A stretch of 64,000 nt of DNA from a bacterium (GCA_021849805.1 JAJZSL010000002.1:81229-145228), one strand, 5' to 3'. Shown: positions 36,384-46,394, counted from the first letter of the stretch. The notes: generated by a model from the letters alone, not told the origin. A program made the numbers and translations.

Positions 36384-37493
36384 ATGAAATCACGTGATCC
36401 TGCACTCAGATCTCTTTGGAAAAAAGTAGAGTCCCAAACGCGTTTTTCTCTTGAGGATGCCATGACTCTTTATCGCTCTAGCGATCTTGCTGCTCTGGGT
36501 GCTATGGCTAATATGGTCAGAGAGCGACTCCATGGAAACAAGGCGACCTATATTTTCAATCGTTACATTAATTATTCCAATATTTGTATTTTGAATTGTC
36601 AGTTTTGTGCTTTCGGAGCTAAAAAACGCGATGCTCATGCTTTTCAACTAGCAATTCCTCAGATTGTTGAGGTCACGGCTCAAGCATGGAAGAGGGGAGC
36701 TACTGAGATTCATATGGTTGGAGGATTGCATCCTTCTCTCCCAGCAGCATGGTATCTAGAACTTTTGCGTGAAATACGAAAGATAAGTCCTACACTTCAT
36801 CTCAAAGCTTTTACTGCTATTGAAGTAAGGCACTTGGCCTTTCGTATTTTTAAAAAACCATTACGTGAAACCTTAGAACTACTGCGGGAAGCAGGCCTTA
36901 ATACACTTACAGGAGGAGGAGCTGAAATTTTTGACCCTGTCATTCGTGATCGTATTTGTCGAGGTAAAGAAACAGCTCAAGAATGGCTTGAAGTTCATCA
37001 AACCTGGCATGAAATGGGGATGCGCAGTAATGCTACTATGCTCTTTGGCCATTTGGAAACAATCGAACATCGAGTTGATCATTTGTCTCGATTACGTCAA
37101 CTCCAAGACCAGACTCACGGGTTTACAGCTTTTCTTCCTTATGCTTTTGTTCCTGAAACAACAGCACTTGCTCATATTCCACCTGCTGGTGAAGAGGAGT
37201 GTCTTAGAAACTTAGCGGTTGCGCGACTTTTTCTCGATAACTTTGATCATATCACGGCTTATTGGATTAGTTTTGGACTACCGCTTGCAGCTCAATCACT
37301 CCACTATGGTGTTGATGATCTCCATGGGACTATTGAAGAAGAGAAAATATTTCATATGGCTGGAGCTACAACGCCAGAAGAGCAAACGGTTGAAAGCTTA
37401 GAAAAGGCTATCTCTTCTGTTGGCCGAACTCCCTTCCAGCGAGATACATTTTATCGGATTATTCAGAAATCTTCATTGCCTACTACTGGATGA
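36384..37493 (+). CDS. Radical SAM enzyme of the futalosine menaquinone pathway (MqnE/MqnC family; MqnE favoured by adjacency to mqnA)
   Basis: The CxxxCxxC cluster sits in INYSNICILNCQFCAF. The protein is about 370 aa, and its stop overlaps the mqnA start by 4 nt. Confidence 0.72.
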   Translation: MKSRDPALRSLWKKVESQTRFSLEDAMTLYRSSDLAALGAMANMVRERLHGNKATYIFNRYINYSNICILNCQFCAFGAKKRDAHAFQLAIPQIVEVTAQAWKRGATEIHMVGGLHPSLPAAWYLELLREIRKISPTLHLKAFTAIEVRHLAFRIFKKPLRETLELLREAGLNTLTGGGAEIFDPVIRDRICRGKETAQEWLEVHQTWHEMGMRSNATMLFGHLETIEHRVDHLSRLRQLQDQTHGFTAFLPYAFVPETTALAHIPPAGEEECLRNLAVARLFLDNFDHITAYWISFGLPLAAQSLHYGVDDLHGTIEEEKIFHMAGATTPEEQTVESLEKAISSVGRTPFQRDTFYRIIQKSSLPTTG

Positions 37494-38248
37494 CTCCTAG
37501 AGAAGAAGATTTTCGCTTAGGAGCTGTTTCCTATTTGAATACATTGCCTCTGATTGAAACATTAGGTTCATCTATTTATAAGGATGTTCCTGCTAATTTA
37601 ATTCACGTTTTTAATCAGGGAGTTCTTGATGCTGCACTACTTCCTATTTATGACATTTTTCAATTACCCGATCCAGAAGTTGTCCAACATATTGCCATTG
37701 CAGCTCGAGGAGATGTCTACAGCGTGATTTTAGCCTACCAAGGGGCATTAGAAAAAGTCCGCCAAGTAAGCCTAGATCCCTCTTCGCATACATCGAATCA
37801 ATTAGTAAAAGTAATTTTAGCTGAGTTTTACTCTCTTTATCCCCATTACATCGAAGAGAAGAGAGCAGATGGAACATTAGTTGAAGGGAGTGCAAAAGTG
37901 ATTATTGGTGATCCTGCGCTTCATTTTCGTCAACAAGCAAGTTGTTCTATTTTGGATCTTGGAGGAGCTTGGTATCATTTCACCAAGTTGCCTTTTGTTT
38001 TTGCTATGTGGTGCTTAAATAAAAAAACAGTTCAACGAGAATATTTAAAAAAAATGCTTCTCACTGCTAAGGAAGAAGGTTTACGGTTACGAAACGTCAT
38101 TGCAGCTAGAGAGCCCAATCCTGCTTTGGCACTCTACTATTTGACCAAATGTATTCACTATGATGTTGGTCCTAGAGAGTTAGAAGGTATCACTCTGTTT
38201 AAATCACTTTTGAAAAAACATGCTCTTGACGGAGGCGCTATTGTATAA
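37490..38248 (+). CDS. mqnA: Chorismate dehydratase MqnA
   Basis: The N-terminus RLGAVSYLNTLPL and a periplasmic-binding-protein-like size (252 aa) are characteristic of MqnA. Confidence 0.75.
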   Translation: MTPREEDFRLGAVSYLNTLPLIETLGSSIYKDVPANLIHVFNQGVLDAALLPIYDIFQLPDPEVVQHIAIAARGDVYSVILAYQGALEKVRQVSLDPSSHTSNQLVKVILAEFYSLYPHYIEEKRADGTLVEGSAKVIIGDPALHFRQQASCSILDLGGAWYHFTKLPFVFAMWCLNKKTVQREYLKKMLLTAKEEGLRLRNVIAAREPNPALALYYLTKCIHYDVGPRELEGITLFKSLLKKHALDGGAIV

Positions 38249-38307: not shown

Positions 38308-38907
38308 ATGATGACTAAACTCGGAGCTCCTCAAAAAATTTATTCTAAAGAGAGATCTTTTGTTCGAGATCAGATTCCACGAACAGCTTCTGGAATAGAG
38401 ATCTATACTCGTTTCCAAAACTACGCTTTTCGCTCCAATCCCCAAAAAAGTCCCATGGCTCGAGCTCTAGTAGCTCATGGCTATGAAGTCTCTAATCATC
38501 CTCTCTATCCTCAGTATACTGATACTGATTGGTTAGCTTCTCATGTCTCCATGAGAGGTCTGAGTATTGTTTTTCGACAGCCTACAGAGAAAGATCTCTT
38601 GGTTTGCTATATTAAAAGGGAGGGAGAACATCAGAATATGAGATCATCTCTTCTTGGTATTGCTCAATTTTTTAGTTGTTGTCGTTATGACTGTCCTGAT
38701 CTTCGTTATGTAGGAGGTCATCTTGAGAAGCAAAACAATGACATAAAGATGCGATCTCCTCTAACAATGGATCGATTAATTTCCTTCTATCATCACCATC
38801 TAGGAGATTTGGAGGCCTACCAGAGAGCAGGAACATTTTTTATTTATGCAGAGCTTCACCGTGATCAACGCTTTGAACATTTCCCTCTTTGGAAGAAATG
38901 TCGTTAA
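38308..38907 (+). CDS. Hypothetical protein (199 aa) at the left border of the T3SS locus
   Basis: An isolated ORF on the same strand as the T3SS genes. I recognise no motif. Confidence 0.4.
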   Translation: MMTKLGAPQKIYSKERSFVRDQIPRTASGIEIYTRFQNYAFRSNPQKSPMARALVAHGYEVSNHPLYPQYTDTDWLASHVSMRGLSIVFRQPTEKDLLVCYIKREGEHQNMRSSLLGIAQFFSCCRYDCPDLRYVGGHLEKQNNDIKMRSPLTMDRLISFYHHHLGDLEAYQRAGTFFIYAELHRDQRFEHFPLWKKCR

Positions 38908-38951
38908 AGAAGCTTTTTGACCTTGTGAGAAAACTGAGTTATTGCTAGCGG

Positions 38952-39533
38952 ATGGCTAATTCTCAAGAAACCATAGAAGAGGATATAACACGTCCTTTAG
39001 ATCAAGCAGGTCAAGAAGGTGTGATTAAAGAAGGTGATACTTCTCAAACTGGAGAAGTGCCTCAAGCAGCACCCACAGAAAACATGACCGAAGAAGAAGA
39101 GTTCACTGCCCACCGAAAGGATGAACATCGTCTTGCAGAACAATCAGAAGAGGAGCCAGTTTCACTGGAGCAATTTGCTAAGGAGCTTACTTCAACATCT
39201 TCTCTTCCAAATGCAGTTTCCTCATTACCCGTAGCGTCACCTTCAGCAAAGGAAGAATCAGTGCTTCCTCCTGCTTTGGGAATCAGTACAAAAGCTAGTG
39301 CGCAACCTCTCGTGGATCCTCTTGATCTAGAAGTGGAATTGTCTTTTTCCTTAGGAAAAAAGTTGGTTCCACTCAAGGAGGTGAAGACGCTTCTGGAAGG
39401 CAAGTTTCTTTCTCTTGGTGGAACAGATTTTCAAGTAAGTATTTTGCTTGAGAAGAAAGTAATTGCTTTTGCCCAGCTGGTCTTAGTGGAGGGAGTTCCA
39501 TCGTTGCAGATTATCAAAAGTGTTACTCCTTGA
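38952..39533 (+). CDS. SpoA-domain protein (SctQ/FliN family) with an acidic disordered N-terminal half
   Basis: The C-terminal roughly 75 aa, LEVELSFSLGKKLVPLKEVKTLLEGKFLSLGG...VIAFAQLVLVEGVPSLQIIKSV, match the surface-presentation-of-antigens (FliN/SctQ C-terminal) pattern. Confidence 0.6.
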   Translation: MANSQETIEEDITRPLDQAGQEGVIKEGDTSQTGEVPQAAPTENMTEEEEFTAHRKDEHRLAEQSEEEPVSLEQFAKELTSTSSLPNAVSSLPVASPSAKEESVLPPALGISTKASAQPLVDPLDLEVELSFSLGKKLVPLKEVKTLLEGKFLSLGGTDFQVSILLEKKVIAFAQLVLVEGVPSLQIIKSVTP

Positions 39534-39572
39534 TATGTTCCTGTTTGATTAAAAGAAGAATGCCTTTAGGAA

Positions 39573-40769
39573 ATGAATCCTAGAATTTTATCCCGAAGGG
39601 TCCTGTCACCAGGAGGAGATATTGACACTTCTGATCTACAAGGAGTCGGGCTTTATCGTGGAAAAGAGATTAAGAAATCAAAATTTAATGATGATCTAGA
39701 ATTTGGTGTACATGATGAGGCAGACGATCAAGACGGTCAATCGGCAAGGAGTGATCATGTTGAATTAAAAAGTGCTTTTCAAAAAAAAGAAAAAAATGCT
39801 TTTGATGATCAGCAGAAGAGTCTTCCTGATTTTGATGAATTTGCTAGCTCTCCTGATTTTCAAAAATTCATGGCTCAGCTTAGGAGAAGTCAGCGAGGTG
39901 GAAATTATCAAGAAGTAGAAAATACGTTAAATTCTCTTTTTGAAGATCCAACGCTTAAAAATGCTGCTCTCAATGTTGCGCTCCGGTTACTCGGTGACCA
40001 AGCAGCTGATACTGACTTAAAAGAACTCTTGGAGCAAATGCTTCATGATTTGAATGAGAGCCATGGAGCTGAAATTCGAGCTGGTTATAATGTTTCTCAA
40101 GTTGCTGCATCCAGTATTAGTAATGAAGCTGAGCTTATCGCTGCACTTCGAGACTTCTATTGTCAAGTTATTTTTGGAGATCAAAATTTAATCACTAATT
40201 ATCGAACAATCATGAATTCTTTCCCTGAGCTCGATAAAATCAAACGGGATCAGAAAAAGAAAAAAAAGAAACAAGAGGAAAAAGAAGAAGAGCCCGATGG
40301 AAAAGAAGGTCAGCAAAGGCTTGAGAAAGCATTAGAGTTTCTTTTGCGTTCTCTAGCTGCTGAACTAAAATCAAATGCTCCTTCGCTAGAGCCTCCTTTA
40401 CTCAAGGCGGTGATGGATGGCTTGTGTCAAATGGAATTTTTCCGTAACGCTTATCGCTCTTTTCTACAAATGCTCACCAAAATGAACATTACTAACGCTG
40501 CTATCCCCGTAAAACCTTCTCGTCTTATTAATGAAATCTTGACTTGTATTAGTAAGGAAACGCTACTCGATGATGAGTTCTTACGTATTGCAGAAAAATT
40601 TTCTGTTCCTCCACTACAGCTCTCCATTGAGTTTCTAACACGTATCTATGAGATGATACGACTTTTTCCAGAAAGAATTTTCCCATCAACAGTCAATCGC
40701 GATCATTGCTTGAAAGCCGTACAATCTTCTCTTGATTCTGCTATTGCTCGAGAGAGTGAAGTGGCATGA
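39573..40769 (+). CDS. sctW: T3SS gatekeeper SctW (fused YopN/TyeA-type, HrpJ-like)
   Basis: 398 aa. HGAEIRAGYNVSQVAA resembles the YopN/MxiC-family AGLN signature. Its position directly upstream of the chaperone triplet and sctV supports the call. Confidence 0.72.
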   Translation: MNPRILSRRVLSPGGDIDTSDLQGVGLYRGKEIKKSKFNDDLEFGVHDEADDQDGQSARSDHVELKSAFQKKEKNAFDDQQKSLPDFDEFASSPDFQKFMAQLRRSQRGGNYQEVENTLNSLFEDPTLKNAALNVALRLLGDQAADTDLKELLEQMLHDLNESHGAEIRAGYNVSQVAASSISNEAELIAALRDFYCQVIFGDQNLITNYRTIMNSFPELDKIKRDQKKKKKKQEEKEEEPDGKEGQQRLEKALEFLLRSLAAELKSNAPSLEPPLLKAVMDGLCQMEFFRNAYRSFLQMLTKMNITNAAIPVKPSRLINEILTCISKETLLDDEFLRIAEKFSVPPLQLSIEFLTRIYEMIRLFPERIFPSTVNRDHCLKAVQSSLDSAIARESEVA

Positions 40770-40815
40770 AGAAGCGACTTTTTAATAACTAAGAGAATAA
40801 TCCATTGAAAATCTC

Positions 40816-41184
40816 ATGACGATTTCAAGTACTATTGAACAATTTCTTCAACAATGTGGCCTCCATGGTATCAGTATGGAAGAAGGAGGAAGCTTGAATC
40901 TGACTATTGAAGCAACTGGTAAACTTCAACTGCTTCATCGCCCCCCTCATTTTTTAATAGGAATCAATAGAAAAGTAGAAAATCTCTATTCCTTAGATGC
41001 ACGAAAAATTCTTGCTCGTGCTCATTATCGAGAAAAAAAAATCAAACCTCTCCACATGAGACTTCATGATAATGTATTGGGAATTTATTATATTTTCGGA
41101 GAACGAGAAATTGACTCTTCTCTTTTGTCAACGGCTCTAGATTCTCTCACCGAGCTAATAGAACAAATATTCCAAACGCTCTAA
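40816..41184 (+). CDS. Class I T3SS chaperone (SycN/Pcr2 position, CesT/SycE-like)
   Basis: 122 aa and acidic. The N-terminal IEQFLQQCGL...LNLTIEATGKLQL pattern is typical of CesT-fold chaperones, and synteny agrees. Confidence 0.5.
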   Translation: MTISSTIEQFLQQCGLHGISMEEGGSLNLTIEATGKLQLLHRPPHFLIGINRKVENLYSLDARKILARAHYREKKIKPLHMRLHDNVLGIYYIFGEREIDSSLLSTALDSLTELIEQIFQTL

Positions 41185-41192
41185 ATTTTTTA

Positions 41193-41579
41193 ATGGAGTT
41201 TAAACCGATTTCCCCATTTGATTTTAGAAGTGATGGGCTGACGCTCTTACCATCAGATCGCCCACAAAAGCTTCCTCCACAAAAGCTTTCTCCTCCTTCT
41301 CTGGGAGAAACACCCGCACTCACAAAATTACAGGAGCTCTTCCAGAGCAATCAGCTAGAAAATCTTGAGTTGAATTCGATGGCACTTGCTCAAGAAACGC
41401 TTAATGTTCTTGCTCAAGAGACACTCAAGTCCTTGATAGCTGATACCTCTTCTTTACTCAAAGCTGCAAACGGCATTGCTCCCATCCATGAAATCGAAGA
41501 GGTGGCTGCAATGTTCAATGAAGAATTGATGAACCAAGAACTTCTTGCTGCTTTACGAAGGACAATTCTTGGAGGCTGA
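41193..41579 (+). CDS. Small T3SS-associated protein in the YscX/Pcr3 position
   Basis: The call rests on size (128 aa) and position only. It starts 8 nt after the preceding chaperone gene. I recognise no sequence motif. Confidence 0.3.
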   Translation: MEFKPISPFDFRSDGLTLLPSDRPQKLPPQKLSPPSLGETPALTKLQELFQSNQLENLELNSMALAQETLNVLAQETLKSLIADTSSLLKAANGIAPIHEIEEVAAMFNEELMNQELLAALRRTILGG

Positions 41580-41602
41580 ATGTTGATTTCAAATCATCAA
41601 AA

Positions 41603-41977
41603 ATGCTCTCTACATGTCTTATGTTACAAGAAAAGCAATATACTCCTCGAGAACGCTTACATGCACTCTTAGATTTATTAAGTTACTTTTACATGACTTA
41701 TGGAAAACCGGAGCGAGCCTGTTCTTACTTGCGCTTGCTCACGAAACTAATGCCCGGTGACCATCGTCTTTTAAGATCACTAGCACGTAGTGAAATGGAA
41801 TCAGGCAATGCAGAGGTTGCCAGAGAAATCTTGGAGCGTCATTTGACCATGACCATGACATCAGAAGAGAGGGCTGCCACGCTCCTTCTCTTGAGTAGGG
41901 TTTTTTTGAGGTTAGAACAACTAGAAAACTCTTCTCAAGCTATCGCTCAATTTTTAGAAATCAAAAAAAGAAACTAA
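41603..41977 (+). CDS. TPR-like T3SS chaperone in the YscY/Pcr4 position
   Basis: 124 aa of helical TPR-like repeats (LSYFYMTYGKPERACSYLRLLTKLMPGDHRLLRSLARSEMESGNAEVAREIL), immediately upstream of sctV. Confidence 0.5.
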   Translation: MLSTCLMLQEKQYTPRERLHALLDLLSYFYMTYGKPERACSYLRLLTKLMPGDHRLLRSLARSEMESGNAEVAREILERHLTMTMTSEERAATLLLLSRVFLRLEQLENSSQAIAQFLEIKKRN

Positions 41978-42132
41978 GAGACTAAACTGCTAGCACCATC
42001 AACTATTCCTTCGAAAAACCAGATTATTTTTTGATGATTTCTTTTTTAAGAAAGGCTGTTCATACTCCAAAATTTCAAAAAGCCAACGTGGAGTGATTCT
42101 ACTCCTTTCTAAGCAAACCAAAGAGCTCTTTA

Positions 42133-44250
42133 ATGAATGAATTTCTAGAACAGTTTCAAACGTGGATTACACGTTCTAAGAAATTTGGTGATTTCTATAT
42201 AGCATTTCTCATTGTTGCTATTATTGCTCTTTTTATTCTGCCAGTTCCCTCTTGGCTCCTCGATGGTCTGATTTCACTTAATCTTACCATCTCCATCATT
42301 ATGCTCATGATGGCTCTCTATGTGCCTAACGTCTTGGCGTTTTCCACTTTTCCAAGTTTACTTTTGATTACAACGCTCTTTCGATTGTCACTCAATATCA
42401 CCTCCACACGCATGATTCTGTTGGACGGTTACGCAGGAGAAATTATTTATGCGTTTGGAAATTTTGTTGTAGGAGGGAACTTTGTAGTTGGTGTTGTCAT
42501 TTGGATGATTTTGCTCGTTGTCCAATTTATTGTTGTCACCAAAGGTGCAGAACGTGTTGCAGAAGTCGCTGCTCGATTCACTCTTGATGCCATGCCCGGT
42601 AAGCAAATGAGTATTGATGCTGATATGAGAGCTGGGGTCATTGATATCAAGGAAGCTCAGAAACGACGTCATAATGTTGAGAAAGAGAGCCAAGTCTTCG
42701 GTTCCATGGATGGTGCTATGAAATTTGTTAAAGGAGATGCCATTGCAACGCTCATCATTGTTTCCATCAACGTGATTGCTGGAATTACGATTGGTGTTTT
42801 ACAAAAAAAAATGCAGTTAGGCACTGCAGTACAAAATTACTCCATTCTCTCTATTGGAGATGCTCTCGTTTCTCAAATTCCTGGATTACTTATCACCATT
42901 ACAGCAGGTATTATTGTTACTCGTGTTGGTTCTGAAGAAAAAACGGGACTTGGAACGGACATTTTCTCTCAGGTTCTAGCAATTCCTAAAGCTTTGTTGA
43001 TTGCTGGAACAATTCTTCTCTTTTTTGCTATTGTTCCTGGATTTCCAAAAATCCAATTTGGATTTTTATCTATCATCGTTCTTGTATTCGGTTACATGCT
43101 CGATCATGGATCAATACCAATGCTGAAGAAAGGAGGGAGCCTGCTACTTTCTCCTGGTGCAAAAAAACCATCAGCAGCCCCGGGAGAGCCTTCAGTAGGA
43201 GATGGAAAAGAAACTTCCCATGAGGAAGAGTTTTCGATCACTGTTCCTGTTTTGTTAGAAATCGATGCTGCTATTCAAGAATTCATTTCTCCTGATGCGC
43301 TCAATACAGAACTCATCCAAGTAAGACGTGCTCTTTATCATGATTTAGGTGTTCCTTTTCCTGGAATCCACTTGCGTTTTAATGAGAATCTCAAAAAAGG
43401 AGAATACCAGCTCTTATTACAAGAAGTCCCTATGTCCTCAGGTCTTTTGCGTCCAGAATTTCTCTATGTGCGTGAAAGTCAGGAACACCTCTTAGCTTTT
43501 CATATTCCCTTTGACCCTGTTCAATCCCCTCCAGATCAGATTCCTGCTGTTTGGGTCGCTCTAGCACAAAAAGGACTTCTAGAGCAAATCGGTCTTACTG
43601 GAATGGATTCCTCTAAGCTTTTAAGTTTTCATATTTCTCTTGTACTCAAAAAATATGCTGCAGATTTTATTGGTCTTCAAGAAACCAGAAAACTTCTTTC
43701 TCAAATGGAAGCAGACAATGCAGAAGTGGTTCGCGAAGTTCAACGGGTTTTGCCTCCGACAAAAATTGCAGAAGTTCTTCAACGTTTAGTTCAAGAAGAA
43801 ATTTCTATTCGCAATCTACGTACTATTTTTCAAGCTCTTATTGAATGGGCTCCCAAAGAAAAAGATGTATTACTACTCACCGAATATGTACGTATTGCTC
43901 TTCGTCGTTACATTAGCTACCACTTCAGTGGTGGAAGAAATGTTCTTGTGGCCTACATTTTGGAGCCAAGTGCTGAGGAACAGATTAGGAAATCTATTCG
44001 ACAAACCTCTGCAGGTAGTTTCTTGGCTATGGAACCTGTCATGAGTAAGAAGCTTATTGATGCTGTCAAAAACCAAGTGGGCGATCTTGCTCACAAGGAA
44101 CGACCTCCTGTTCTACTGGCTTCTATGGATGTACGCCGCTATATGAAAAAACTTATTGAGCTTGATATTCCTCAGTTAGCAGTGCTCTCTCTTCAGGAAA
44201 TAACAGAAGAAATCAATGTACAGCCTCTAGGCCGCATTGGGATTAATTAG
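42133..44250 (+). CDS. sctV: T3SS export apparatus major subunit SctV (LcrD/InvA/FHIPEP family)
   Basis: 705 aa. FHIPEP signatures are present: FPSLLLITTLFRLSLNITSTRMIL, VVQFIVVTKGAERVAEVAARFTLDAMPGKQMSIDAD, and GSMDGAMKFVKGDAIA. Confidence 0.95.
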   Translation: MNEFLEQFQTWITRSKKFGDFYIAFLIVAIIALFILPVPSWLLDGLISLNLTISIIMLMMALYVPNVLAFSTFPSLLLITTLFRLSLNITSTRMILLDGYAGEIIYAFGNFVVGGNFVVGVVIWMILLVVQFIVVTKGAERVAEVAARFTLDAMPGKQMSIDADMRAGVIDIKEAQKRRHNVEKESQVFGSMDGAMKFVKGDAIATLIIVSINVIAGITIGVLQKKMQLGTAVQNYSILSIGDALVSQIPGLLITITAGIIVTRVGSEEKTGLGTDIFSQVLAIPKALLIAGTILLFFAIVPGFPKIQFGFLSIIVLVFGYMLDHGSIPMLKKGGSLLLSPGAKKPSAAPGEPSVGDGKETSHEEEFSITVPVLLEIDAAIQEFISPDALNTELIQVRRALYHDLGVPFPGIHLRFNENLKKGEYQLLLQEVPMSSGLLRPEFLYVRESQEHLLAFHIPFDPVQSPPDQIPAVWVALAQKGLLEQIGLTGMDSSKLLSFHISLVLKKYAADFIGLQETRKLLSQMEADNAEVVREVQRVLPPTKIAEVLQRLVQEEISIRNLRTIFQALIEWAPKEKDVLLLTEYVRIALRRYISYHFSGGRNVLVAYILEPSAEEQIRKSIRQTSAGSFLAMEPVMSKKLIDAVKNQVGDLAHKERPPVLLASMDVRRYMKKLIELDIPQLAVLSLQEITEEINVQPLGRIGIN

Positions 44251-44450
44251 AGCGTTCAACTAAAGTCATAACTGTGCATGAGAGCATCATTCCAATGATC
44301 ATTTTCTCATGGTTCTTCAACAGCATGAAGAATAATCATTTTAATTCTTTCATTTTTTTTTTCTTTATTTATAACGATGCTTTTTCCATGAAACAACAAT
44401 GCTTGTTATTCTCGATAATGCTCAAGAAAGTCTCATGAGCATTTGATATT

Positions 44451-45860
44451 ATGAGTCTCGAAAAACCATGGCTGCTTAAAGTCCTTAATGGGCCTAATGC
44501 AGGAGCTCAAATTTTGATTTCAAAGGAAGTTACCATTGGTACTTCACTTCAAAGTGATCTTATTTTAAATGATCCTCACATTGCTGCTACCCACTGTAAG
44601 ATTGAAAAACTCAAGAAAGAGGAGGGATTCCAAGTTATTGCCTCTGATGGAGCTATTTTTATTAATGGTATTGAAGTAAGTGAGAAAGAGAATCTCTTAA
44701 AGCTAGGAGATGTCTTAACACTTGGAAGTACGCATTTGACGGGAGGTCCTAGCGAAGAGCTTTGGCCGCCTATTAAGATTCCAGAAATTAAAGAAATAGG
44801 ATCAGCTCCTCAACAAGAAGAAAAAAATTCTCTTCCTAAAGAAACTTCAGGAGAACTCAACATAACCAAGAAAAAAAGCTTTTCTAATTTATCACTTACG
44901 ATTCTCGTTGTTGTAGGAGCTTGTGTTTTTATGGGTTTGGCGCTCTTTAAGTGGATTGCTCATAAAAATCTCATGCTTCCAAGAGCTCAATTCCAGCCAT
45001 CATTTTTTGATCAAGATGACAAAAGTCTCCTCACCAAGCAACAGGCTAGTGCAGAAGCTGTCGTAGCATTGTTGAAGAAAAAATTTCCCAAAAATACTAT
45101 TAAAGTAGTTCAAAGAAATGAAGGAACGATGCTTTATATCTACGTGCATGATCAACTTCAAAACGACTATGTTCGCAAGACCATGAATGAAATGAGCCTC
45201 CCAATAGCTTGTAACATTATTAATATTAGTGACATTGATGATAGTGGATTAGCCATGATGAAAGCGCTCCATTTTGCTGTTTCCATGGCTGTTGATGAAA
45301 ATACCGGCAAAGTAACCTGGAATGGTTATCTCCCCAATGAGGAGCTTTTTAATCTCATGAAAAGCCAGATTCAGCGAGATCTTCCAGCTATTACCGAAGA
45401 AGAGTTTCAGATTATTCTGGGTGAAGATGCTCGGGAGAAAATACGTGCCATACTATCGAAAAACTATTTTTCAAATATCACTATAACGCCTGAGCGTGAA
45501 AATATAACTTTAACAGGTATGATTGGAGTAGGTGAGAGCATGCGTTGGGAGAAAGTATTAAAAGAACTTGATGATGCTTTTAAGCAGCGGATTAAATTCT
45601 CCAACATGGTTACTATTAATTCTGGAGCCATAAGAGCACATGGATTTTTTAATGCTCCAGTTGTTTCTATTTCAATCTCCTCATTTCCTTATGCCATCCT
45701 TCAAAATGGAGAGCGCATTTTCCTTGGTGCAAGAGCCAATAATGGTTACGTTGTTGACTCCATTACTAGCAATGGTATTGAGCTAGTTAATCATGGTGAA
45801 CGGAAAATTGTTCCTCTCATGGGTCAGTCAACAACTGCAGAAATCGATTTTTGTAAATAA
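44451..45860 (+). CDS. sctD: T3SS inner-membrane ring protein SctD (YscD-like, N-terminal FHA-like domain)
   Basis: The N-terminus is FHA-like (LLKVLNGPNAGAQILISKEVTIGTSLQSDLILNDPHIAATHCKI). There is a single central transmembrane helix (LSLTILVVVGACVFMGLALFKWI). The periplasmic region has a YscD-like C-terminal end (PYAILQNGERIFLGA...VVDSITSNGIELV). Confidence 0.75.
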   Translation: MSLEKPWLLKVLNGPNAGAQILISKEVTIGTSLQSDLILNDPHIAATHCKIEKLKKEEGFQVIASDGAIFINGIEVSEKENLLKLGDVLTLGSTHLTGGPSEELWPPIKIPEIKEIGSAPQQEEKNSLPKETSGELNITKKKSFSNLSLTILVVVGACVFMGLALFKWIAHKNLMLPRAQFQPSFFDQDDKSLLTKQQASAEAVVALLKKKFPKNTIKVVQRNEGTMLYIYVHDQLQNDYVRKTMNEMSLPIACNIINISDIDDSGLAMMKALHFAVSMAVDENTGKVTWNGYLPNEELFNLMKSQIQRDLPAITEEEFQIILGEDAREKIRAILSKNYFSNITITPERENITLTGMIGVGESMRWEKVLKELDDAFKQRIKFSNMVTINSGAIRAHGFFNAPVVSISISSFPYAILQNGERIFLGARANNGYVVDSITSNGIELVNHGERKIVPLMGQSTTAEIDFCK

Positions 45861-45866
45861 AAACGT

Positions 45867-46130
45867 ATGATCAATAGTAAAAAACAGGTTATGGAGATGG
45901 GAGTTTCTCTTCAAAACGATTGCAATGGACAGTATCGGCAAATGCTTCGCAATCGCATTCTTGCTTTACGTCAAAAAACAGAGCACAAACTTACTGAAGA
46001 AAAAGATCATCCAAAAATGAAACGTCTTGAAGCAATGATGCGAGCCTTGATGATTGCTGATCGGATTTTGGATAAATTATTTGCTGCAGAGCCTCATGAA
46101 ATGAATGCTCAAAGTCGTATCGTAGAATAG
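45867..46130 (+). CDS. Small helical protein in the SctE (YscE) position
   Basis: 87 aa, starting 6 nt after the sctD stop. The composition suggests a helical hairpin. The assignment is by position only. Confidence 0.3.
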   Translation: MINSKKQVMEMGVSLQNDCNGQYRQMLRNRILALRQKTEHKLTEEKDHPKMKRLEAMMRALMIADRILDKLFAAEPHEMNAQSRIVE

Positions 46131-46205: not shown

Positions 46206-46295
46206 TGGCGGAGGGGGTGGGATTCGAACCCACGAAGGCTTGAAGACCTCTCCGGTTTTCAAGACCGGTGCAATCAACCACTCTACCACCCCTCC
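46206..46295 (-). tRNA. tRNA-Ser (anticodon UGA), CCA encoded
   Basis: The reverse complement reads GGAGGGGUGGUAGAGUGGUUGAUUGCACCGGUCUUGAAAACCGGAGAGGUCUUCAAGCCUUCGUGGGUUCGAAUCCCACCCCCUCCGCCA. The acceptor stem is 7 bp, the anticodon loop is CUUGAAA, the variable arm is long, and the T-loop is GGUUCGAAUCC. Confidence 0.92.
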
Positions 46296-46375: not shown

Positions 46376-46394
46376 AAGAGAGTACTGCTCTCTT
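46376..46394 (-). terminator. Possible intrinsic terminator downstream of the EVE-domain gene
   Basis: A 7-bp perfect stem (aagagag / ctctctt) with a 5-nt loop. On the minus strand it is followed by tcaagttttt. The stem is short and the U-tract is offset. Confidence 0.3.

Follow-up and report, generated by a model that had tools for sequence, protein, structure and literature searches.

A Bordetella-type type III secretion module of an uncultured Chthoniobacterales-like Verrucomicrobium, probably one part of a dispersed injectisome

Two type III secretion system (T3SS) proteins, SctX and SctY, have been reported to be unique to the Ysc family (PMC9163089; PMC7498569), and Chlamydia has been described as having neither of them (PMC9163089). 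In Bordetella, the genes BP2257-BP2263 correspond to bopN-orf4-bscX-bscY-bcrD-bscD-bscE, with a gatekeeper that is fused into a single protein (PMC7498569). In 2012 the survey of Abby and Rocha recorded non-flagellar T3SS from just three groups, the Chlamydiae, Proteobacteria and Verrucomicrobia, with Verrucomicrobium spinosum as its verrucomicrobial entry (PMC3459982). This species has been described as a pathogen of invertebrates that uses its T3SS in that role (PMC3681970). Here we present a T3SS locus at positions 38308-46130 of a 64,000-nucleotide stretch of bacterial DNA (GCA_021849805.1 JAJZSL010000002.1:81229-145228), the whole of which is referred to as the window. The kind of system is not new, as verrucomicrobial T3SS have been known since at least 2012 (PMC3459982), and its interest rests on its dispersed architecture and the implications of that architecture for the ecology of the host bacteria. 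We consider it likely that the window locus is one module, comprising the gatekeeper, export gate and inner ring, of a single dispersed Bsc-like injectisome, carried by a Chthoniobacterales-like Verrucomicrobium from mine drainage and spread over at least two loci among housekeeping genes.

Gene prediction and profile searches give nine intact ORFs (open reading frames), all co-directional on the + strand, which fill the interval 38308-46130 between mqnA and a tRNA-Ser gene in the order LcrR-like, extra SpoA, fused sctW, SycN-like, sctX, sctY, sctV, sctD and YscE-type. Every gene named in the original prediction is found at its coordinates on the + strand as an intact ORF, and the proposed Ysc/Psc operon order not only holds but can be sharpened, since the run from the fused sctW through the chaperone, X, Y, V, D and E is the order of the Bordetella bsc genes. 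The intergenic gaps inside the locus measure 6-46 nt, apart from those in front of sctV (155 nt) and sctD (200 nt).

The largest gene, sctV (42133-44250, +), encodes an export gate protein of 705 aa that scores 873.5 bits on TIGR01399 against a cut-off of 692. It is followed by sctD (44451-45860, +), whose 469-aa product is assigned as the inner-membrane ring protein by TIGR02500 (89.1 bits, cut-off 86), PF16697 (E 1.9e-13) and PF23893 (E 1.9e-7), and has an FHA-like cytoplasmic domain, one membrane span and periplasmic domains. The SctW gatekeeper (39573-40769, +; 398 aa) exceeds the cut-offs of both PF07201 HrpJ (E 7.5e-17, 62.6 bits) and PF09059 TyeA (E 4.4e-12, 46.4 bits), and also matches TIGR02568 and TIGR02511. 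It had been described as a single fused protein, which is borne out: one ORF carries the HrpJ domain and then the TyeA domain, with no YopN/TyeA split. Its top PDB match is 7yyg (E 1.2e-8), a 365-aa "putative outer protein N" that, from its name and length, we take to be Bordetella BopN. A-rich DNA encodes the linker between the two domains (window 40107-40407), a stretch of low complexity dominated by K and E, and in read mapping this region attracts unrelated contigs, with a depth of 850 vs. about 3 beside it in one run.

For the smaller proteins the assignments from single sequences are weaker, and these were strengthened with profiles built from orthologues of related loci. The SycN-like class I chaperone (40816-41184, +; 122 aa) matches TIGR02503 below the cut-off (E 6.4e-9), while a profile of five orthologues matches SycN itself (PDB 1xkp_B) over the full length, residues 2-117 aligning with 4-120 (E 4.6e-5). 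SctX, the YscX-family protein (41193-41579, +; 128 aa), gives a weak full-length match to PF09474 when searched alone (E 0.0095), and four of the five aligned SctX orthologues match that family, the best with E 1.1e-16. The alignment shows a conserved C-terminal helix motif, ELLAALRRxxLGG; in a search of the SctX profile against PDB, the YscX chains were not matched by sequence. The tetratricopeptide repeat (TPR) chaperone SctY (41603-41977, +; 124 aa) matches NF052415 with E 3.4e-18 and 66.1 bits (cut-off 70) and PDB 8arc, "SctY", with E 0.01; the public gene call begins at 41621 and gives 118 aa. The nature of these three small ORFs between sctW and sctV, on which the synteny reading had been made to depend, is therefore chaperone- or YscX-like, as seen in the matches to 1xkp_B, in the PF09474 orthologues and in NF052415.

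The last gene of the locus (45867-46130, +; 87 aa) has no Pfam or NCBIfam match by itself. A profile of four positional orthologues matches the EscE/YscE/SsaE structures PDB 7y6c (E 2.1e-5) and 7y6b (E 9.2e-5) over the full length, which makes it a candidate needle co-chaperone of YscE/EscE/SsaE type. It stands directly after sctD, where a gene of this type would be expected; no needle gene or YscG partner was located in the two loci of this genome. At the other end, the first gene (38308-38907, +) encodes an LcrR-like protein of 199 aa that falls below the PF09621 cut-off of 21.2 with 18.6 bits (E 0.0014), and its 49%-identical orthologue (E 1.6e-64) at L178:9865-10431, in a related locus, scores 30.2 bits on the same family. 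Between this gene and sctW lies that of the extra SpoA protein (38952-39533, +; 193 aa), in which PF01052 covers residues 125-189 (24.7 bits vs. a cut-off of 23.8) and TIGR02551 SctQ matches with E 3e-9. Its N-terminal half is acidic and of low complexity and its C-terminus is SctQ-C/FliN-like. SctQ in its full length (346 aa) has a gene of its own in the second locus described below.

The relationships of SctV show to which family the system belongs. The full-length protein scores 786 bits with PDB 7alw, which is identical to the YscV chain 7qij over the cytoplasmic domain, compared with 472 for SsaV and 402 for FlhA. For the cytoplasmic domain, 7qij (YscV) gives 367 bits, followed by 6wa6 (presumably chlamydial CdsV) with 277, EscV with 170, InvA with 167 and MxiA with 140. 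A FastTree tree was built from 91 SctV/FlhA sequences, a set without Yersinia or Pseudomonas aeruginosa sequences. There the window SctV and seven sequences of uncultured relatives make up a clade with support 100. It nests within a Verrucomicrobiota clade (support 99) whose neighbours are Lentisphaerota/Kiritimatiellota and Desulfovibrionaceae and whose sister, at support 95, is a group of Achromobacter type. The Chlamydiota stand apart as a clade of their own (support 100), and the window SctV is also apart from two clades that we assume to be Hrp-type and rhizobial. The SctV phylogeny that had been proposed as a check on the system's affiliation thus gives a Bsc-type neighbourhood with the Chlamydiota apart.

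Residues R551, R669 and R701 of YscV, which are reported to contact the C-terminus of YscX (PMC9163089), are conserved in the window SctV alignment. This conservation is consistent with a YscX-type gate mechanism without being specific to it. Because SctX and SctY are both present, SctV groups with the Ysc/Bsc type, and the gene order is gatekeeper-SycN-X-Y-V, the system is, as judged from its predicted proteins, an injectisome of the Ysc/Bsc family in a bacterium of the Planctomycetes-Verrucomicrobia-Chlamydiae (PVC) group and not of the chlamydial type. That the host is PVC-like had been suggested from the remainder of the window, and this stands, the nearest named relatives being Chthoniobacterales and Verrucomicrobia metagenome-assembled genomes (MAGs); the likeness to Chlamydiae drawn at the same time holds for the dispersal of the genes and does not extend to the T3SS family. 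A database search with SctV points to a large uncultured family, with about 50 clusters of 61-88% identity and a further 70 or so of 55-60%. SctV scans of the public genome and metagenome contig collections found neither the host genome itself nor any relative above 58% identity, and their matches were used for synteny and the tree only.

The original prediction had offered two explanations for the missing core genes, a machine split into several loci or a remnant, and the first of these is favoured by a second locus in this organism, sctJ-U, which complements the genes of the window. This second locus was sought through exact-protein look-ups. A search with the SctU of a relative (locus L169) led to protein P0154, which is in ENA sample ERZ27237442 on contig k141_190344 (120,145 bp, also in NCBI); the window is itself part of contig k141_421409 (207,590 bp) of ERZ27237442. 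P0154 and the SctD of the window share the Logan run SRR13221995, and the longest recorded contig is 318,353 bp for P0154, for the window's SctD and for its SctW alike. Going by these equal longest-contig records, both loci appear to lie on one 318,353-bp contig in one public assembly.

The second locus (L173, positions L173:1-21065) contains eleven intact ORFs in the order sctJ-K-L-N-O-P-Q-R-S-T-U. SctJ scores 205 bits (cut-off 162), SctL 100.8 (78.7) and SctN 666 (657), SctO, SctP-like and SctQ proteins are also assigned, and SctR, S, T and U are assigned by Pfam. The flanking genes are cox, sco, smpB, rpoZ and dxs, and the GC content of 41.7% is close to the 41.5% of the window. The core parts located are therefore D and V in the window and J, K, L, N, O, P, Q, R, S, T and U in L173; these are complementary sets in which no core gene is duplicated. 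Both here (L173:1156-1584, -) and in the related locus L178 (L178:214-633, -), sctJ has immediately upstream of it a divergent, conserved ORF of 139-142 aa that matches no family, the two being 42% identical. A further group of SctU proteins (P0161, P0162 and P0164) was considered as the SctU of this genome and rejected, as its members come from other samples and pair with a different, convergently oriented SctV.

The related loci also bear on how the two modules were once joined. In L178, the gene directly after sctU is the LcrR-like orthologue noted above, i.e., the counterpart of the first gene of the window locus. Depending on the genome, the LcrR-like gene is thus found on one side of the break or on the other, which links the modules and fits one ancestral cluster broken at differing points; comparison of the gene orders indicates that the LcrR-like gene marks an old junction between the two T3SS modules. 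The ancestral cluster was probably contiguous, in the order J...U, LcrR, SpoA, W, SycN, X, Y, V, D and E, and broken at different points in each relative. A contiguous arrangement is present in L169/L170 (SctV 65% identical), which reads sctN-O-..-Q-R-S-T-U-HrpJ-TyeA-SycN-X-Y-V-...-D-E-F-...-translocator-like-sctC; in L169, as in L167, the gatekeeper is split into separate HrpJ and TyeA genes.

Some other rearrangements were observed among these loci. The rpoZ-smpB pair lies 8 kb after sctU in L173 and about 5 kb after the sctD and 87-aa genes in the closest relative (L162/L164), and this difference in position hints at an inversion or translocation between modules. The closest relative also has two unassigned ORFs (212 and 201 aa) between the SycN-like gene and sctX (L163:3492-6489), no recognisable sctW at the locus, and toxin-antitoxin genes (Phd/YoeB, ParD) just upstream. 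In the third verrucomicrobial SctU clade (P0161, P0162, P0164), the sctJ-U block is followed by a convergent sctV (L171:5247-5460), and the C-terminus of this L171 sctV is only about 60% identical to every other SctV collected.

Several points weigh against a single dispersed and functioning machine. That the loci share one contig is judged from the equal longest-contig records. Neither the window nor L173 yielded sctC, sctF or sctI, genes of yscG/yscB-type chaperones or genes of translocators. P0253 and P0263, picked by source pattern and clade as the possible secretin of this genome, had to be rejected since they belong to other samples and genomes. The metatranscriptomes of the study yielded nothing from this organism. 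Finally, the two modules differ in how many close relatives they have, as about 10 clusters in the database are 84-91% identical to the genome's SctU (P0154) and the window's SctV has just two relatives above 65%, P0001 (84%) and the partial P0017 (88%). This gap, which is the reverse of the usual order of conservation, could reflect different module histories or a second SctV elsewhere. A large and tight SctV clade is only 62-64% identical to the SctV of the window.

The disagreement between the SctU and SctV identity distributions could suggest that sctW-V-D-E and sctJ-U belong to different T3SS lineages, with a second SctV elsewhere in the genome or the original module replaced. The assembly data can be read in the same way. 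In the Logan assembly made from the source run, sctV is broken within its most conserved stretch (window 42594-42615). Contigs of depth 15 and 8 (vs. 36) overlap there, the assembly graph being tangled by SctV/FlhA genes from other members of the community; in one run, the contig of depth 15 overlaps the conserved part of sctV, as a second copy might. We nevertheless regard two systems or a swapped module as unlikely. The loci are exactly complementary in their core genes, and the LcrR-like orthologue ties sctU to the window module. Outgroup distances of the two modules agree, with SctV and SctU at 65% and 47% for L169 and at 63% and 51% for the pair P0393/P0137 (which apparently share one 54,999-bp contig, going by equal longest-contig records), and the third SctU clade has its own, different SctV. 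It could also be that the database is thin in SctV because sctV is often broken in metagenome assemblies, which could explain the gap.

The missing outer parts were pursued through the relatives. The needle, rod, tip and translocator proteins of L167 and L169 gave no tblastn match to the window or L173. A search with a relative's secretin revealed a clade of stand-alone T3SS secretins of 700-810 aa in Chthoniobacterales-like genomes. In two such related genomes (L177:1863-12421 and L179:504-12394), the secretin (797-806 aa) stands by itself within a conserved synteny of lgt, a SopB/IpgD-like gene, a CesT chaperone gene, pyruvate dehydrogenase genes, YggS, sctC and brnQ, with a distance of about 8 kb between sctC and the SopB-like/CesT genes. 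By analogy with these relatives, a stand-alone sctC is likely to be present in this genome as well.

Secretin-less T3SS-derived export has been proposed for some myxobacterial systems. As the outer components were located in neither the window nor the second locus, the genes could similarly specify a T3SS-derived export device, with no secretin or an altered one, which would serve periplasmic or membrane export and would not inject into eukaryotic cells. We think this highly unlikely, given that the gatekeeper, SctX/SctY and the candidate needle co-chaperone are of kinds confined to systems that form needles and are regulated by contact, and that in relatives from this clade a secretin of T3SS type is encoded near a SopB/IpgD-like effector and a CesT chaperone.

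The same gaps might instead mean that the secretin, needle and translocon were lost and that an injectisome is no longer formed, i.e., that the locus is a decaying remnant. No sctC, sctF, sctI or translocator gene lies in the window or in the 21 kb around the second locus, and the candidate secretins that were looked up come from other samples; these observations speak for this explanation. Its strongest form, that no other core sct genes exist in the genome, is contradicted by the eleven in L173; these and the nine window ORFs are all intact, and several of them score above curated cut-offs. We compared the locus with its closest relative, L163, whose SctV is 84% identical and whose host has an SmpB 72% identical to that of the present host. 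Synonymous divergence (dS) is 1.8-4.5, i.e., saturated (SctX not included in dS), and nonsynonymous divergence (dN) stays low, at 0.11 in SctV and at 0.33-0.54 in SctD and the small proteins, with all frames intact. Because dN is low where synonymous sites are saturated and every frame is intact, the locus is not decaying, and on these substitution estimates its genes are kept under long-term purifying selection. The retention of a needle co-chaperone gene candidate, together with the stand-alone T3SS secretin retained in related genomes, also argues against a remnant, which we consider very improbable. The system is real and dispersed and, as judged from its predicted genes, probably working.

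With regard to the surroundings, the left-hand neighbour is mqnA (37490-38248, PF02621), and the right-hand boundary is formed by tRNA-Ser(UGA) at 46206-46295 on the - strand (ARAGORN), with tmk (PF02223) beyond it. These bounds agree with those originally given; the start at 38952 does not, since the LcrR-like gene at 38308 begins the locus. The absence of sctC, F, J, N, R, S, T and U from the 64 kb was likewise upheld, as no other window ORF resembles any ORF of 80 related T3SS and flagellar loci. The GC content of the locus is 39.1% vs. 41.5% for the window. A recent genomic island at the tRNA-Ser gene was considered and rejected, as there is no integrase, the GC content is only slightly lower, and SctV lies within the Verrucomicrobiota clade. 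The first + strand terminator-like hairpin outside genes is at 46376-46394, and the intergenic gaps before 46376 contain none. Terminator-like sites number 10 compared with 6.8 (standard deviation 2.2) in shuffled sequence, which is no clear excess, and promoter-like sites number 10 against a shuffle mean of 21.1, fewer than in the shuffles; neither count gives evidence on operon structure.

A mechanism can be proposed in which each step is inferred from characterised Ysc systems. SctV would assemble into a nonameric export gate, and SctX, kept soluble by its TPR chaperone SctY, would dock its conserved C-terminal helix between SctV subunits and thereby license the export of early substrates. 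SctW together with the SycN-like chaperone would plug the gate until host contact and set the switch from translocators to effectors. SctD would form the outer of the inner-membrane rings, around SctJ, and the 87-aa protein would act as a co-chaperone of the needle subunit, helping to hold it monomeric. The LcrR-like and extra SpoA proteins may modulate regulation and the sorting platform. In other systems, a SctQ-C fragment is made by internal translation initiation, and the extra SpoA protein may replace that fragment here.

Chthoniobacterales-like Verrucomicrobia are usually treated as free-living. It is quite possible, at somewhat less than an even chance in our estimation, that widespread uncultured members of this group, in mine drainage, lakes and groundwater, carry a working Bordetella-type injectisome with which they inject protists or other eukaryotes. 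Its genes would have been scattered in parallel with, but independently of, those of Chlamydiae, with breakpoints that vary and a secretin that stands alone, so that dispersal would recur among PVC bacteria instead of being peculiar to the Chlamydiae. The SctX/SctY-dependent Ysc/Bsc injectisome, which has been studied almost only in proteobacterial pathogens, is common in environmental Verrucomicrobia going by the SctV matches, and the uncultured hosts are probable partners or predators of eukaryotic microbes. Such a T3SS can apparently persist under purifying selection while split into separate chromosomal loci. The relatives amount to natural experiments on gene linkage, in which W-SycN-X-Y-V always stay together, while D-E, J-U and C do not.

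Compared with described systems, the locus is closest to Bordetella bsc, which has the same order over seven genes and a fused gatekeeper, of 365 aa in BopN vs. 398 aa here. An Achromobacter locus shares the order W...Y-V-D-85 aa, and the SctV clades are neighbours in the tree, although the Achromobacter SctV is only about 54% identical and the present host is a Verrucomicrobium. The Bordetella genes form one locus that continues with bscF (BP2264) and has the translocators next to bopN, whereas here the locus ends before the needle gene at tRNA-Ser, the LcrR-like and extra SpoA genes precede it, and sctJ-U lie elsewhere. The yopN-tyeA-sycN-yscX-yscY-yscV-lcrR genes of Yersinia (virA operon) and popN-pcr1-4-pcrD of Pseudomonas show the same gatekeeper-SycN-X-Y-V order, and an LcrR-like gene is present here as well. 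In contrast to Yersinia, the gatekeeper is fused, the LcrR-like gene is upstream of sctW instead of after sctV, the sctD and E-type genes come next to sctV on its downstream side and are not in a virC operon, and lcrG/V/H and yopB/D are not adjacent.

Within its own phylum, the system can be likened, by description, to that of V. spinosum, which also has a non-flagellar T3SS; the present lineage differs in being uncultured and Chthoniobacterales-like and in having a split system. Our literature search found no paper on T3SS in Chthoniobacterales. With the chlamydial T3SS (CdsV, CopN) it shares a PVC host, genes scattered among housekeeping genes and a fused gatekeeper, but the chlamydial system is without SctX and SctY, and in two Chlamydiota MAG loci sctW follows sctV. 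The likeness to Chlamydiae is thus limited to dispersal.

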